Below, piece after piece: positions 2,141 through 11,862 of a stretch of 11,862 bases of DNA. The DNA lies in IMG/VR virus record IMGVR_UViG_3300041809_003079. One strand, 5' to 3'. Under the pieces are notes generated by a model. It searched no databases, was not told the origin of the DNA, and worked only from the letters and a program-made list of their open reading frames with translations. Each line of letters opens with the position of its first letter. Within the stretch, counting starts at the first letter, position 1. The DNA comes from a virus. Position numbers and translations under genes: made by a program.

Positions 2141-2518
2141 CTACTGGCCTCTTTCTTTACACTCGTTGCATTCCTTTTTAGGTGGTGGCGAGATGACATC
2201 TAATTCATAGACGCTAGCGTCGACAAAGTTGATACAATTACCGTCAACAGTGATCCATTGTTGCAACAGGAACAGGTTACGTATTGGCAAGTCCGGGTTA
2301 GGGTGCCCGATGACGAGTGCAAGACCAAAATAATTGCCAGAGTGGACGTATACACCGCCAGTAAACTTGTTTGATATTCGTTCCGCGACGCCGAATGACC
2401 GGTTCTTGGGTTTGACAAGTGAACCTACTGTTGCCTGCGCACGTAGCCAACGAGTGAAGCGTGTTTCTGCACTTGAACATACGTCGCTGTCGCGTGAGAC
2501 GTAACTAAACGCAAGCAT
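2141..2518 (-). CDS. Hypothetical protein, 125 aa, immediately upstream of the MVP gene on the same strand
   Basis: Complete ORF in the track; it overlaps the stop of the upstream 226-aa gene by 14 nt, consistent with operon packing. No recognisable domain. Its composition matches the about-48% GC neighbours rather than MVP. Confidence 0.4.
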   Translation of the reverse strand: MLAFSYVSRDSDVCSSAETRFTRWLRAQATVGSLVKPKNRSFGVAERISNKFTGGVYVHSGNYFGLALVIGHPNPDLPIRNLFLLQQWITVDGNCINFVDASVYELDVISPPPKKECNECKERGQ

Positions 2519-3185
2519 ACACTGTGCCTTCTACCCACTTGAGGCCCTCGTTTGCGTCGACGGTGATGACGTATGAACGTCCTTCGTTCTCCACGACGAA
2601 GATGATTGGGCAGAAGTAACTACGATTGTTCTTGGTGGTGCCTGTCACCTCGTCAATGAAAGGTCTGACCCTACACTCGACAGCAGTACGAAATGCCTGG
2701 ACGTAGACCGCGCCCCTGGACCACCACGTGCGTGCACGTGCATCTAATTTAAGGAGTGCAGCAGCGTCTGAGCCTTCGACGACCAGCGCCCTCCTTTGTG
2801 GGTTAGGAGTGGTCAATTCGATCAATCGATTGACGTCGCTCGACCCAAGGCCCTTGCCGTCGAATGTGCGGACGTTCTCGCCTCCCGGCTCAACGATCCA
2901 GACTTCCTTTGCGTTGTCTTTGGTGGCAATATCGTAAAGTTGCTGGAGCGCGCTCCAAAACATCTTGTGGTACCTTGCAGCGACGTCGTGTAGCTCTACG
3001 CTTCGCTTCTCGAGGCGTCGCCAGTCGAATAGCTTGGCTGCGTTGATGCCAAGTGCACTGCGATAGTAGTTTCTTTGGTGGCACGTCACGCGGCGAAACT
3101 TCTCACCTTCCCATGGGTATGCTGGGCGTTCGAGCAGCTTTGTGAGCTCGGTGGGAGGCAGTTCGTCAATGTTGACTGTCTTCAT
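2505..3185 (-). CDS. Hypothetical protein, 226 aa
   Basis: Longest complete minus-strand ORF in the leftward operon; same strand and packing as its neighbours. The SD is weak (GAGAAA about 16 nt upstream). No recognised motif. Confidence 0.55.
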   Translation of the reverse strand: MKTVNIDELPPTELTKLLERPAYPWEGEKFRRVTCHQRNYYRSALGINAAKLFDWRRLEKRSVELHDVAARYHKMFWSALQQLYDIATKDNAKEVWIVEPGGENVRTFDGKGLGSSDVNRLIELTTPNPQRRALVVEGSDAAALLKLDARARTWWSRGAVYVQAFRTAVECRVRPFIDEVTGTTKNNRSYFCPIIFVVENEGRSYVITVDANEGLKWVEGTVYACV

Positions 3186-3193
3186 ACGTTTGC

Positions 3194-3544
3194 TTATAAT
3201 TTCTCAAGCGAACTGTTGTAAACCCAACCGCATGTGACAGAACCTTTCCACGGAAAGACTATGAGTGACCAGTCTTTGTCATCCTTGCGCTGTCCGTTAG
3301 AGACTACGATTGCCAACACGCCAGTTAGTAGGCCTATCAATGCAATGTACTCATCAGGGTGTGAATCTCTGCCTATGATCTTTAATGGGTGTCTGTAGAC
3401 GACTGTACCTGACCTGATGACGTACATCGCTCCTGGAATGACTTGCGTCCGATGAAAGCTAGTCACTTTATGTTCAACTTTCGTAGGCTTCCGTCGAGCG
3501 CCCAGCCCAACAATCCTGAGCCACACCACAGTACGTACGTCCAT
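3194..3544 (-). CDS. Hypothetical small membrane protein (one predicted TM helix, YIALIGLLTGVLAIVV); start uncertain
   Basis: Minus-strand ORF whose stop lies 8 nt from the next gene's start. It has a single hydrophobic helix. It overlaps the upstream ORF by 82 nt, so the true start may be internal. Confidence 0.35.
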   Translation of the reverse strand: MDVRTVVWLRIVGLGARRKPTKVEHKVTSFHRTQVIPGAMYVIRSGTVVYRHPLKIIGRDSHPDEYIALIGLLTGVLAIVVSNGQRKDDKDWSLIVFPWKGSVTCGWVYNSSLEKL

Positions 3545-3720
3545 GCCTGAGAATTCGTTGCGATGATGATTCCGATGGCATTGGCGTCGGCCTTGGCGAG
3601 GCTTCTGAAGTCAGCGTCATTGTTTTGAGGCATCGGAGATGCGTAAATTGCAATGGGCCTGCCTCCTCGAGGCATGACCATGTCGCCCGGCATGCCTCGG
3701 ACGTCGGTCGGCTTGGTCAT
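3463..3720 (-). CDS. Small PGD-motif protein (about 85 aa from an internal Met, MTKPTDVRGMPGDMVMPRGG...), hydrophobic C-terminal half
   Basis: The track ORF is 3463..3765. The internal ATG at 3720 forms an ATGA overlap with the stop of the 3717..3935 ORF, the usual coupling arrangement. It contains the PGDMVMPRGGRPIAIY motif shared with six other small ORFs. Confidence 0.4.
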   Translation of the reverse strand: MTKPTDVRGMPGDMVMPRGGRPIAIYASPMPQNNDADFRSLAKADANAIGIIIATNSQAWTYVLWCGSGLLGWALDGSLRKLNIK

Positions 3721-3935
3721 GGTGTATACACCAGCACCCCTTCCTGCCCATGGCAGCCTCGACACCGTACCCTGCCATCGCTGAACCAGTATACCTTGTA
3801 TGCCAGCTGTGGGTTATCGTCGAGGGTCACCATGAGCCCGAGGCACAGACACAGCACGTCATTTATGTCCATGTGAAACCTGAAGAGGTCACCCGGCTTC
3901 AGGCATGGGAGGAGCTGGATCGGTAGGTGACTCAT
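3717..3935 (-). CDS. Small PGD-motif protein, 72 aa (KPGDLFRFHMDINDVLCL)
   Basis: Complete ORF on the operon strand with a family motif; it overlaps the upstream gene by 47 nt, so start choice is uncertain. Confidence 0.35.
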   Translation of the reverse strand: MSHLPIQLLPCLKPGDLFRFHMDINDVLCLCLGLMVTLDDNPQLAYKVYWFSDGRVRCRGCHGQEGVLVYTP

Positions 3936-4158
3936 CGTTCTTCTTTACCGGCATGACCGGAGCAAACTTCAGGCCGAGGTCGATCGCTACTAACAATGCC
4001 TGGTCCTGGACGTTGTCCAGGTGTCTAAGGGCACGTACGTAAGGGAACACGCTCTTAGGGTCGTGGTAGTCGTAATTGAACTGCTCGATCGTAGACTGCA
4101 GCTCGTCGACAGCCTGCAGGATGTCGTTCAACCGTAGCCGAACTGTCTCAATGTCCAT
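3889..4158 (-). CDS. Hypothetical protein, 89 aa
   Basis: Complete ORF, 4 nt from the upstream gene's stop (4163); co-directional packing. Confidence 0.45.
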   Translation of the reverse strand: MDIETVRLRLNDILQAVDELQSTIEQFNYDYHDPKSVFPYVRALRHLDNVQDQALLVAIDLGLKFAPVMPVKKNDESPTDPAPPMPEAG

Positions 4159-4162
4159 TGCG

Positions 4163-10628: not shown

Positions 10629-10629
10629 C

Positions 10630-10812
10630 ATGGCAGCCAGCAACCAGACCGTCGCAGACGTCTACGCAATCATGGTGAAGTACGTTGCTCCAGAACACCG
10701 CACGGCGATGCTGAAAGAGCTTGCTGAGGTGCGTGGCAACCGCTCATTTGAGGACACCATGAAGAGGCTTGCAACGCTCCACGCTGAGCGTACAGGCGAC
10801 GGTGATCAGTGA
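10630..10812 (+). CDS. Hypothetical protein, 60 aa
   Basis: Strong SD AAGGAGA followed by 6 nt and ATG; ATG 2 nt after the upstream TGA. Confidence 0.55.
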   Translation: MAASNQTVADVYAIMVKYVAPEHRTAMLKELAEVRGNRSFEDTMKRLATLHAERTGDGDQ

Positions 10813-11114
10813 GTGTAGTCTTCAAGGTAAGGGACCGCGCAACAGGGCTGTTTGCGTCAGGAGGTAGCTTTCCTCACTGGTCGTCGGTCGGCAAGGCATG
10901 GCCCAATGTTGGAACGTTGAAGCGGTGGCTTTCTACTGTTGACGTCTATAACGCTGGCACGTCAACGCTTCGTGGCCCGCTTCCAGAATCATGGGAGGTG
11001 GTAGAATATAATGAGGGAAAGTGCTTCTTGGTCTCTGGCCTTTTGACTGGCAAGATCATTGCTGAAAATGAGCGTCTAGAGCGTCATGAGACGACGAAGG
11101 CAACGGTCGAGTGA
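10809..11114 (+). CDS. Hypothetical protein, 101 aa, GTG start
   Basis: GTGA overlap with the upstream stop (10809-10812). Confidence 0.5.
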   Translation: MSVVFKVRDRATGLFASGGSFPHWSSVGKAWPNVGTLKRWLSTVDVYNAGTSTLRGPLPESWEVVEYNEGKCFLVSGLLTGKIIAENERLERHETTKATVE

Positions 11115-11126
11115 CATCACTGCTGG

Positions 11127-11738
11127 GTGGCTCTTTTACGAGCTAGCGTAATACTCCCACCAAAGCGTTGGGTACAGTACCTCAAGGTGCTCATGGACGC
11201 TAAACCTTCTAAGATCAGGCCGCGCCAGGTGTGGTCGTTCACCGACAATGAATACCTACACGATCGAATAATCGTCGCATTGAGCCCGCCTCTTGCCCAG
11301 TTGGCACCAAAGCCTGCTGACATGCCTGAGCAGGTCGCCATGTGGGCATTGCTTCAGTCGATCGACTGGCACTTTGTTGGGCTCGTTGACAGCAACGATC
11401 GCATCGTCTATTTTGGCTCTACGTGGGCCAGAAAAGACGACGAATTCCCTGCAGGCAATGTCGCTGAATTCATCGTCAAGTACGTCGAGGATTCTGGGTC
11501 GATGTTGCCTGACAAGCTAGGCATCGTCGATGACCTAATCATCTCACCCGATTGCTTGACAACGTACTGCACCGAAGTCTCAATGCAGCAGGTGAATAAT
11601 GCGTTTCTTAGCGACCCATGTCCCACCTGCGGTAGAAGGAAGGCTTCTAGGCCTCCACGTGAGAAGGTATGTTGGGAATGCTGGCTCCAGAATTTGATCA
11701 CGAATGCTGGCGACGAGCCAAGTGAACTTTGTCCTTAA
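11127..11738 (+). CDS. Hypothetical protein, 203 aa, with a C-terminal CPTCG ... CWEC zinc-finger-like motif
   Basis: Complete ORF on the operon strand. C-x2-C-x13-C-x2-C pattern near the C-terminus. Start uncertain (GTG at 11127 with a weak SD). Confidence 0.5.
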   Translation: MALLRASVILPPKRWVQYLKVLMDAKPSKIRPRQVWSFTDNEYLHDRIIVALSPPLAQLAPKPADMPEQVAMWALLQSIDWHFVGLVDSNDRIVYFGSTWARKDDEFPAGNVAEFIVKYVEDSGSMLPDKLGIVDDLIISPDCLTTYCTEVSMQQVNNAFLSDPCPTCGRRKASRPPREKVCWECWLQNLITNAGDEPSELCP

Positions 11739-11749
11739 GCAGTGTTACC

Positions 11750-11862
11750 ATGACAATTATGGTTGCAAGAGCTGATCGACACCAGTGCTTTAACGACGAT
11801 GACGATTGTGCTAGGGAGTGTGATCGCAGGTACAGCCACCGTGAAGGCCACTACGTATGTAG
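11750..11862 (+). CDS. Possible start of a Cys-rich ORF that runs off the window (MTIMVARADRHQCFNDDDDCARECDRRYSHREGHYVC...)
   Basis: Open frame from the ATG at 11750 to the window end; no clear SD. Confidence 0.2.
   Translation, partial: MTIMVARADRHQCFNDDDDCARECDRRYSHREGHYVC

Follow-up and report, generated by a model that had tools for sequence, protein, structure and literature searches.

The 11,862-nucleotide window analyzed here (IMG/VR virus record IMGVR_UViG_3300041809_003079) is one entire JGI metagenome contig of 11,862 bp, ending at position 11862, and probably represents part of a larger genome, that of an uncultivated huge (jumbo) tailed phage whose lineage possesses its own gene for MVP, a vault-like protein. 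On the same reading, positions 2141-11862 constitute a non-structural accessory region organized as two divergent operons of small genes. This block is best read as resembling the small-gene early regions of large lytic phages, being operon-packed, quickly evolving and largely lineage-specific. Dense runs of small, unannotatable genes are expected in huge phages, and the block itself is ordinary.

Probable phage origin of the contig and its conserved MVP neighborhood

The MVP gene runs off the left contig end, and its identification in the initial annotation is upheld by matches to Pfam MVP_shoulder (E = 5e-27; 94.7 bits) and Vault_3 (30.5 bits), both above their cut-offs, together with Band_7 and the Vault repeat, the latter at 24.7 bits falling just under its cut-off of 27; the C-terminal cap-helix region of the protein is outside the window. 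Relatives with 64-74% amino acid identity are encoded on IMG/VR viral and metagenome contigs, including ones of 116, 150, 309 and 369 kb, and on the large contigs (up to 369 kb) they sit in mid-contig. More distant relatives, with 43% identity by tblastn, occur in the "uncultured phage" genomes LR756500, LR756501 and LR756503 (462-735 kb). No relative was found in one genome per species from 185,579 bacterial and archaeal species, and in the metagenome scan the nearest relative was 74% identical, with none closer. Relatives of the window genes are thus carried by phage-classified contigs larger than 200 kb, as found in huge phages: 309 and 369 kb for MVP, and 215-369 kb for the AT-hook gene at 6836-7471. 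Among the related loci (designated by L numbers), a distant contig bearing the AT-hook gene (L028, 32% identity) encodes baseplate-wedge and virion structural PHROGs, while other AT-hook-bearing contigs encode a phage ATP-dependent DNA ligase and an HNH endonuclease (L025), T4_Y16D (L032) and Pyr_excise (L030). The MVP-bearing relative L005 encodes the phage GroEL phrog_5725.

To judge from comparison of these sequences, this phage lineage conserves MVP as one of its own genes. At least 12 independent contigs have a homolog of 6836-7471 on the MVP strand, 2.8-10 kb upstream of that gene; counterparts of 3463-3720 are located 0.7-3.9 kb upstream, and those of 2505-3185 are found either 0.9-3.2 kb upstream or immediately behind MVP. 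The 2505-3185 family is very rare, comprising 3 proteins among 5.8 billion. In the sister contigs L006-L009, MVP is followed by an SPFH/Band_7 (flotillin-like) protein of about 640 amino acids and by AAA+ ATPases, and genes for GroEL, a MoxR-type ATPase, methionine aminopeptidase and a glycosyltransferase are found near MVP in sister contigs.

MVP, SPFH and AAA+ genes form a conserved three-gene module in huge phages. Full-length GroEL (phrog_5725, E = 2e-145) and methionine aminopeptidase (M24) are encoded near MVP in L005 (9409-11040, 4829-5596) and L039 (17244-18890).

The initial annotation had regarded an association with MVP as novel, a claim that does not hold, since phage-encoded MVPs have been described in the human-gut Caudoviricetes ctOa11 and ct2Ri15 (bioRxiv 10.1101/2023.11.10.566534). 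The conserved MVP neighborhood, the AT-hook/SH3-barrel family and the multigene family of about 80 amino acids described below appear to be undescribed; literature searches returned nothing on any of the three, which is weak evidence of absence.

The fall in GC content, from about 61% over MVP to about 52% over the rest of the window with a step at 2140, is what would be expected if a satellite, the early region of an integrated prophage or an anti-defense island had been inserted beside a cellular MVP gene with its border near 2140, and the density of small open reading frames (ORFs) without family matches would also suit such an island. However, in 10 of 11 relatives the GC content of MVP exceeds that of both flanks by 3-8 points, so the step at 2140 reflects the MVP gene itself and not an insertion border. 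The 2505, 3463 and 6836 gene types are moreover syntenic with MVP in at least 12 viral contigs, the relatives occupy mid-contig positions on contigs of up to 369 kb, and no MVP relative was found in the 185,579 species' genomes. The window itself contains no recombinase match (Pfam, PHROGs, NCBIfam), no tRNA and only short repeats at chance level, none of them att-like. Synteny and GC pattern therefore contradict the satellite or island reading, which is largely refuted and which we consider highly improbable. Of the three origins first proposed for the block (phage early region, satellite or anti-defense island), the phage DNA dense in small, fast-evolving genes stands, whereas the satellite and integrated island do not. 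The missing integrase and att sites are as expected, because MVP is a gene of the phage lineage and position 2140 is not an insertion border.

It is also improbable, though somewhat less so, that the contig derives from a huge non-viral replicon, such as a megaplasmid or Borg-like element, whose small-gene arrays would be plasmid accessory genes. None of the genes seen near MVP (SPFH, AAA+ ATPases, GroEL, methionine aminopeptidase, glycosyltransferase) is a virion gene, and Borgs have been noted to encode a predicted vault protein (PMC12660748). Against this, all relatives come from IMG/VR viral contigs or curated huge-phage genomes, those bearing the AT-hook gene encode baseplate and virion PHROGs as well as a phage ligase, and megablast was blank in 72,556 plasmids; Borgs, furthermore, belong to methane-oxidizing archaea, whereas the window genes carry bacterial Shine-Dalgarno (SD) motifs and a prepilin signal.

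Several points weigh against assigning the contig to a huge tailed phage with an early-type accessory region. Capsid, terminase and portal genes were not seen on the window contig or on the contigs with a 64-74% MVP relative, the 309-369-kb contigs being covered in part, and this is the main gap in the phage assignment. Phage identity leans on the IMG/VR classification, on distant AT-hook-bearing contigs and on the published relatives at 43% identity. The label of early or host-takeover region is given by analogy only, no promoter consensus was found, 15 ORFs are without any homolog, and a few short ORFs have weak coding scores; some may not be genes.

Gene organization and coding potential of the 2141-11862 block

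The block contains 29 ORFs, of which 15 lie on the minus strand (2141-7471, co-directional with MVP) and 14 on the plus strand (7594-11738), with a coding density of 92% and start/stop overlaps of 4 nt at five junctions (Table 1). The spacer that separates the divergent blocks may act as a promoter region; a sigma-70 promoter scan of the window gave 6 sites against 5.9 expected and no significant match in this spacer (7472-7593). SD-like motifs precede 19 of the 29 starts, compared with 20.6% of all start-like triplets (p = 2e-7), a figure slightly biased by the refinement of three starts partly on the SD motif. A codon-usage model trained solely on five ORFs with homologs then known ranked the annotated frame first of six in 21 of the 24 other ORFs, where chance would give about 4. 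Weak coding scores are confined to between three and six of the shortest ORFs (7835-8086, 9667-9924, 3194-3544, 3717-3935, 2141-2518 and 8409-8525).

These data bear on the possibility that much of the block is non-coding and that many of its ORFs of 60-100 codons are chance frames in decaying or non-coding phage DNA. The 15 ORFs without a homolog and the six with weak codon scores are compatible with such an origin, and the window holds 120 ORFs of at least 40 amino acids in its six frames, so that such lengths do arise by chance. The performance of the codon model and the SD enrichment nevertheless argue against it, as does the strand-coherent tiling at 92% density with 4-nt overlaps. An independent gene caller also gave the same ORFs (P0124-P0132), and a near-identical 2-kb contig from a different sample keeps six window ORFs at 98-100% identity. 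Most window ORFs are real genes, there is little likelihood that the block is largely non-coding, and the clear translation signals and operon organization first noted from the sequence are borne out.

The scans against Pfam and PHROGs, the latter proposed in the initial annotation, gave no match at E <= 0.001 for any of the 28 ORFs of at least 60 amino acids and assigned none to housekeeping families, and NCBIfam returned nothing for eight of these ORFs. No integrase, replication or structural gene was recognized among the window ORFs in the Pfam, PHROGs or NCBIfam scans, in agreement with the first description of the block. Megablast of the whole window against phages, plasmids (72,556) and E. 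coli genomes gave no match; tblastn of the 28 concatenated proteins against 50,697 GenBank phage genomes gave nothing at E <= 0.01; and an exact 41-mer had no match in viral or genome collections. Exact-protein look-ups found no match for 2505-3185 or 6836-7471, and for 3889-4158 the sole match was the near-identical 2-kb contig.

Related phage contigs did provide homologs for 10 ORFs, including 4465-4908, 5208-5657, 6250-6531 and 11127-11738 with one to four sister-contig homologs each, while 15 ORFs had no homolog in anything searched. Clustering the ORFs of 52 related loci into 66 families and scanning the window with them yielded no extra assignments, and the plus-strand ORFs had no pairwise homolog in these 52 loci save a weak one for 11127-11738. 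The description of the entire block as ORFan accordingly stands with respect to Pfam and PHROGs for the 28 ORFs, but not beyond: 8409-8525 matches N_methyl, 10 ORFs have homologs, five are paralogs, and about half of the block's genes have relatives in sister phages.

The AT-hook/SH3-barrel protein family

For the first gene of the minus-strand block, 6836-7471, a locus search with the single protein found nothing and an alignment-based search found homologs. The profile search recovered more than 485 of them, all unannotated and on contigs of up to 369 kb. The protein carries an R-G-R-P core with basic flanks, the hallmark of an AT-hook; the family core reads RGRGRP(K/P)G(S/A)KNRPK and is followed by a basic helix. 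Across 119 sequences, G175, R176, P177, G179 and N182 show no variation, and at least 90% of the sequences keep R174, R183 and K185. The only PDB sequence matches of 6836-7471 are to the AT-hook segments of HMG-I/Y and ARBP. An AlphaFold2 (AF2) model built from the 119 sequences, with a predicted local distance difference test (pLDDT) score of 85.4, comprises two helices, a seven-strand beta domain, the AT-hook and a C-terminal helix. BFVD gave no match below E 1e-3, and hhalign found no relationship between the AT-hook family and the small-protein family described in the next section (probability 0.7%).

Because of its AT-hook motif, DNA binding is predicted for 6836-7471, which is probably a DNA-binding protein. 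Its nearest known systems include SH3-like small beta barrels (bL19, Tudor, KOW and Sm folds) and the AT-hook of HMG-I/Y. The family of more than 485 members is a candidate phage nucleoid-associated or regulatory protein.

In the contig with the closest AT-hook relative (70% identity; L029, JGI Ga0136449_100129430), positions 1-777 translate to a unit of about 45 amino acids, YRRNYTLKAKTTKTIAVHINIKFWSSIIVILHAFVHVQPSA, in three copies, which points to a tandem DNA repeat at the contig end.

An expanded family of small all-beta proteins

The neighborhoods of AT-hook homologs contain long runs of genes of 70-90 codons; L031 has about 42 of them in succession, and L032, where MVP is 10 kb away, has many. 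In L031, 30 of 51 genes form one phmmer cluster at E <= 1e-3. A family hidden Markov model (HMM) seeded on this cluster and iterated over all six-frame ORFs of the window and the loci converged at about 220 ORFs, with 0 hits in a reversed-sequence control, and defined an all-beta family of about 80 amino acids with the consensus PGDLV...LVIa...lGW. Applied to all 52 loci, the HMM recognized 378 ORFs, including 245 distinct sequences of at most 120 amino acids outside the window. Copies per locus range from 1 to 44, the largest numbers being found in L031 (44, in 13 kb), L041 (32), L051 (30) and L033 (26). Co-oriented tandem arrays of 20-44 family genes were observed in L031 (28-9942; Logan SRR21686422_40065) and also in L041, L051, L033, L013 and L032.

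The window holds at least five deeply diverged copies: five of its ORFs (3463-3720, 9667-9924, 3194-3544, 8130-8372 and 7835-8086) were recruited by the HMM before entering its seed, and an independently built sub-family HMM matches three of the five. No Pfam or PHROGs model was significant for the window members or for the 87 members scanned, and the precomputed Pfam field was empty ('-') for all array genes. All-against-all blastp within the window did not reveal the paralogs, which are visible only through the sister-contig arrays. A profile of seven window paralogs gave 17 matches at library scale, mostly the window's own proteins and orthologs of 3463-3720; this profile is too weak at that scale, and the family counts given here cover the sampled related contigs. 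The orthologs of 3463-3720, the best-conserved member, lie upstream of MVP in sister phages, and its AF2 model has six strands and no helix (pLDDT 58.7).

Three further ORFs, 3717-3935, 4958-5206 and 8988-9098, carry an N-terminal PGD motif and are not established members. In 3194-3544 and 3717-3935, the PG(D/A) motif lies upstream of the starts chosen by the public caller (77-aa P0132 and 51-aa P0129), and with the longer forms the overlap on the gene before is 82 and 47 nt, respectively. The start of ORF 8988-9098 overlaps the 8767-8991 stop (ATGA), and this ORF heads the 328-bp gap.

Copies within L031 share a mean identity of 19% and a maximum of 37%, and neighbors are no more alike than distant copies; on this sequence divergence, the L031 copies are ancient. 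Multigene families are known from large eukaryotic DNA viruses, such as MGF110/360 of African swine fever virus (ASFV) and the gene 'accordions' of poxviruses. The phage arrays are similar in comprising dozens of tandem, co-oriented, highly diverged small paralogs in a very large viral genome, with varying copy number. They differ in having a bacterial host and in the age of their copies, and they are not a recent accordion, because mean identity is 19% and there is no neighbor-to-neighbor similarity.

A broader interpretation, which we advance tentatively and consider rather doubtful, is that this lineage of huge phages keeps up an ancient multigene family, very large and diverging fast (245 distinct copies on the related contigs sampled, as many as 44 within 13 kb, plus 5-8 in the window), often beside the AT-hook gene and near the MVP-SPFH-AAA+ module, as the phage counterpart of the multigene families of giant viruses. 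Its products would be small binders that neutralize targets of host defense or takeover, and the 38-aa prepilin discussed below would be a separate decoy for prepilin peptidase. The family accounts for part of the "dark matter" of the block, and it offers a tractable case for studying the expansion of small effector-like genes in very large phages.

A minimal prepilin-like ORF

ORF 8409-8525, with the full sequence MRRQRGFTLFELMVTIAIIGIIIALAATGAHAVMSNIR, matches Pfam N_methyl at 43 bits (cut-off 21.2; E = 2.7e-11) and TIGR02532 at 36.8 bits (cut-off 16.3). It consists of the G↓FTLFE leader and hydrophobic N-terminal helix typical of type IV pilins and pseudopilins; a ribosome-binding site of its own (AGGAAGG) precedes it, and its end overlaps the start of the following ORF (GTGA). 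The globular C-terminal pilin domain, of about 100 amino acids or more, is absent: the frame stops after 38 amino acids and full-length pilin models score far below their cut-offs. It was also considered as the 5' half of a frameshifted pilin, and this was rejected, as fusion to the next ORF adds no pilin signal. No counterpart was found in 32 related loci. The product could be a decoy or inhibitor of host prepilin peptidase or of the type IV pilus or type II secretion system (T2SS), or the ORF could be a gene remnant.

Proposed organization and comparison with known phage regions

Small-gene accessory or early regions are known from large lytic phages, including the T4 early, T5 pre-early and phiKZ-like jumbo phage early regions. 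The block shares with them long co-directional runs of genes of 60-150 codons, translational coupling, an almost complete lack of database homologs, and rapid turnover between related phages while the flanking core genes remain syntenic. Unlike these regions, to which it has no sequence similarity, the block abuts an MVP-SPFH-AAA+ module and is anchored by the AT-hook protein. An "early region" or "anti-defense" function is plausible.

The minus-strand operon, running from 7471 down to 2141 and on into MVP, represents the lineage's conserved segment from the AT-hook gene to MVP. Its backbone, kept in order, consists of the AT-hook/SH3-barrel gene 6836-7471, the small beta protein gene 3463-3720 and the gene 2505-3185 for the MVP-linked 226-aa protein, with small genes of fast turnover between them, and the plus-strand operon (7594-11738) is specific to this phage. 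The small proteins may be cytoplasmic modules for binding host or phage targets, used in host takeover or in anti-defense broadly, and may have diversified through duplication and rapid divergence. By binding AT-rich DNA, the AT-hook protein may have a nucleoid-associated or regulatory role, and a possible effect of the bare prepilin peptide is interference with host prepilin peptidase or with the type IV pilus/T2SS machinery.

Among viruses that carry an MVP homolog, the closest parallels are the IMG/VR contigs of 150-369 kb, with 64-74% identity, and the huge phages LR756500, LR756501 and LR756503, with 43%. The window's order of AT-hook, 3463-type and 2505-type genes recurs in the IMG/VR and metagenome relatives but not in LR756500 and LR756501, which share MVP only and have no AT-hook gene or small-family member within +/-20 kb of it. 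Like the window, ctOa11 and ct2Ri15 encode an MVP homolog in a tailed-phage genome, theirs being closest to bacterial MVP-like proteins (bioRxiv 10.1101/2023.11.10.566534); they differ in environment and lineage, and both are absent from the tblastn hits at E <= 1e-5. The genes around MVP differ between ctOa11 and ct2Ri15 (same source), whereas the neighborhood in the window's lineage is conserved. MVP, the AT-hook protein and the 226-aa partner on the window side, with SPFH and the AAA+ ATPases beyond, make up a gene set with which the role of a vault-like protein in infection could be probed.

Other features of the window

Table 1. Features of the 11,862-bp contig. Coordinates are window positions; HMM and hhalign values refer to the PGD...GW family.
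Position	Strand	Feature	Supporting observations
3-2108	-	MVP homolog, 5' 702 codons, off left contig end	Pfam MVP_shoulder 5e-27, Vault_3, Band_7, Vault
2141-2518	-	125 aa, doubtful as a gene; lies between MVP and 2505-3185	No homolog; low codon score, frame first
2505-3185	-	226-aa protein linked to MVP	Homologs in 13 loci; no Pfam, PHROGs or NCBIfam match
3194-3544	-	Family member; start possibly later (3427)	HMM 3.9e-6; hhalign probability 93.7%
3463-3720	-	Best-conserved family member	HMM 1.3e-4 in round 1, 6e-16 in round 2; orthologs in 20 loci and P0133-P0139
3717-3935	-	72 aa, N-terminal 'KPGDLF'; possible distant family member	hhalign 65% over 13 columns only; no homolog; low codon score
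3889-4158	-	89 aa, acidic	Marginal L003 homolog (E = 4e-4 to 6e-4); good codon score
4163-4468	-	101 aa	No homolog; frame ranks first
4465-4908	-	147 aa, conserved in one sister contig	44% identity to L003 4928-5380, syntenic
4958-5206	-	82 aa, 'LLPGDIF'; maybe a distant family member	phmmer L031 1e-8, L049 2e-7; hhalign 39%
5208-5657	-	149 aa, CxxC...CxCxxC, zinc-ribbon-like	Homologs in L008/L048 (1e-11) and L039 (5e-7)
5690-5953	-	87 aa	No homolog
5950-6246	-	98 aa, acidic	No homolog
6250-6531	-	93 aa, Cys/His-rich (CPGCG...HCCG...GHGC), probably metal-binding	L029/L030 homolog (1.5e-25), near their AT-hook gene
6531-6839	-	102 aa	No homolog; top codon score among orphan ORFs
6836-7471	-	211-aa conserved protein, first gene of minus block	Acidic N-terminal tail, two helices, SH3-like beta barrel, AT-hook (RGRGRPPGAKNRPK), basic C-terminal helix
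7472-7593	.	Spacer between divergent blocks; presumed promoter region	122 bp, 43% GC
7594-7827	+	77 aa, helical, coiled-coil-like	Strong SD GAGGTGA; no outside homolog
7835-8086	+	83-aa family member, weakest of the five	HMM 2.3e-4; hhalign 93.6%; weak codon score
8130-8372	+	80-aa family member	HMM 7.2e-5; sub-family HMM 5.8e-6
8409-8525	+	38 aa, prepilin N-terminal cleavage/methylation domain only (MRRQRG↓FTLFELMVTIAIIGII...)	Pfam N_methyl, TIGR02532
8522-8761	+	79 aa, basic	No homolog; GTGA overlap with 8409-8525
8767-8991	+	74 aa, helical	Possible paralog of 7594-7827
8988-9098	+	36-aa ORF starting 'MTPPMLKPGDMIKL'; possible truncated family copy	Motif by eye only
9320-9610	+	96 aa, acidic, Ala/Thr-rich, after 328-bp AT-richer gap	Only phrog_13430, E = 0.002
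9667-9924	+	85-aa family member	HMM 3.2e-7; sub-family HMM 2.5e-5
9921-10121	+	66 aa, basic	No homolog; ATGA overlap; GGAGG 7 nt upstream
10154-10354	+	66 aa, basic	No homolog
10356-10628	+	90 aa	No homolog; start refined to GTG after AAGGA
10630-10812	+	60 aa	No homolog; best codon score of all ORFs; SD AAGGAG
10809-11114	+	101 aa	No homolog
11127-11738	+	203 aa, C-terminal CxxC...CxxC, zinc-ribbon-like	Weak homolog in L029/L030 (2e-5), immediately following the AT-hook gene there

No Rfam family was detected in the window; a sub-threshold match to SECIS_3 at 2128-2197 (+), in the gap upstream of MVP, reached 27.5 bits against a gathering threshold of 63 (E = 0.011) and is almost certainly due to chance. 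The 328-nt gap at 8992-9319 gave no RNA structure signal (z = -0.48). Terminator-like sites numbered 20 against 10.7 +/- 3.6 expected, lay mostly inside ORFs and were not used. A 15-nt motif, AATTCATAGACG[C/A]TA, present at 2202 and 7525 was rejected as a chance pair, about three such 14-of-15 pairs being expected in 11.9 kb. Among the plus-strand ORFs, 7594-7827 and 8767-8991 are possibly paralogs, as they match each other in blastp with E = 1.6e-4, a value obtained in a tiny database.

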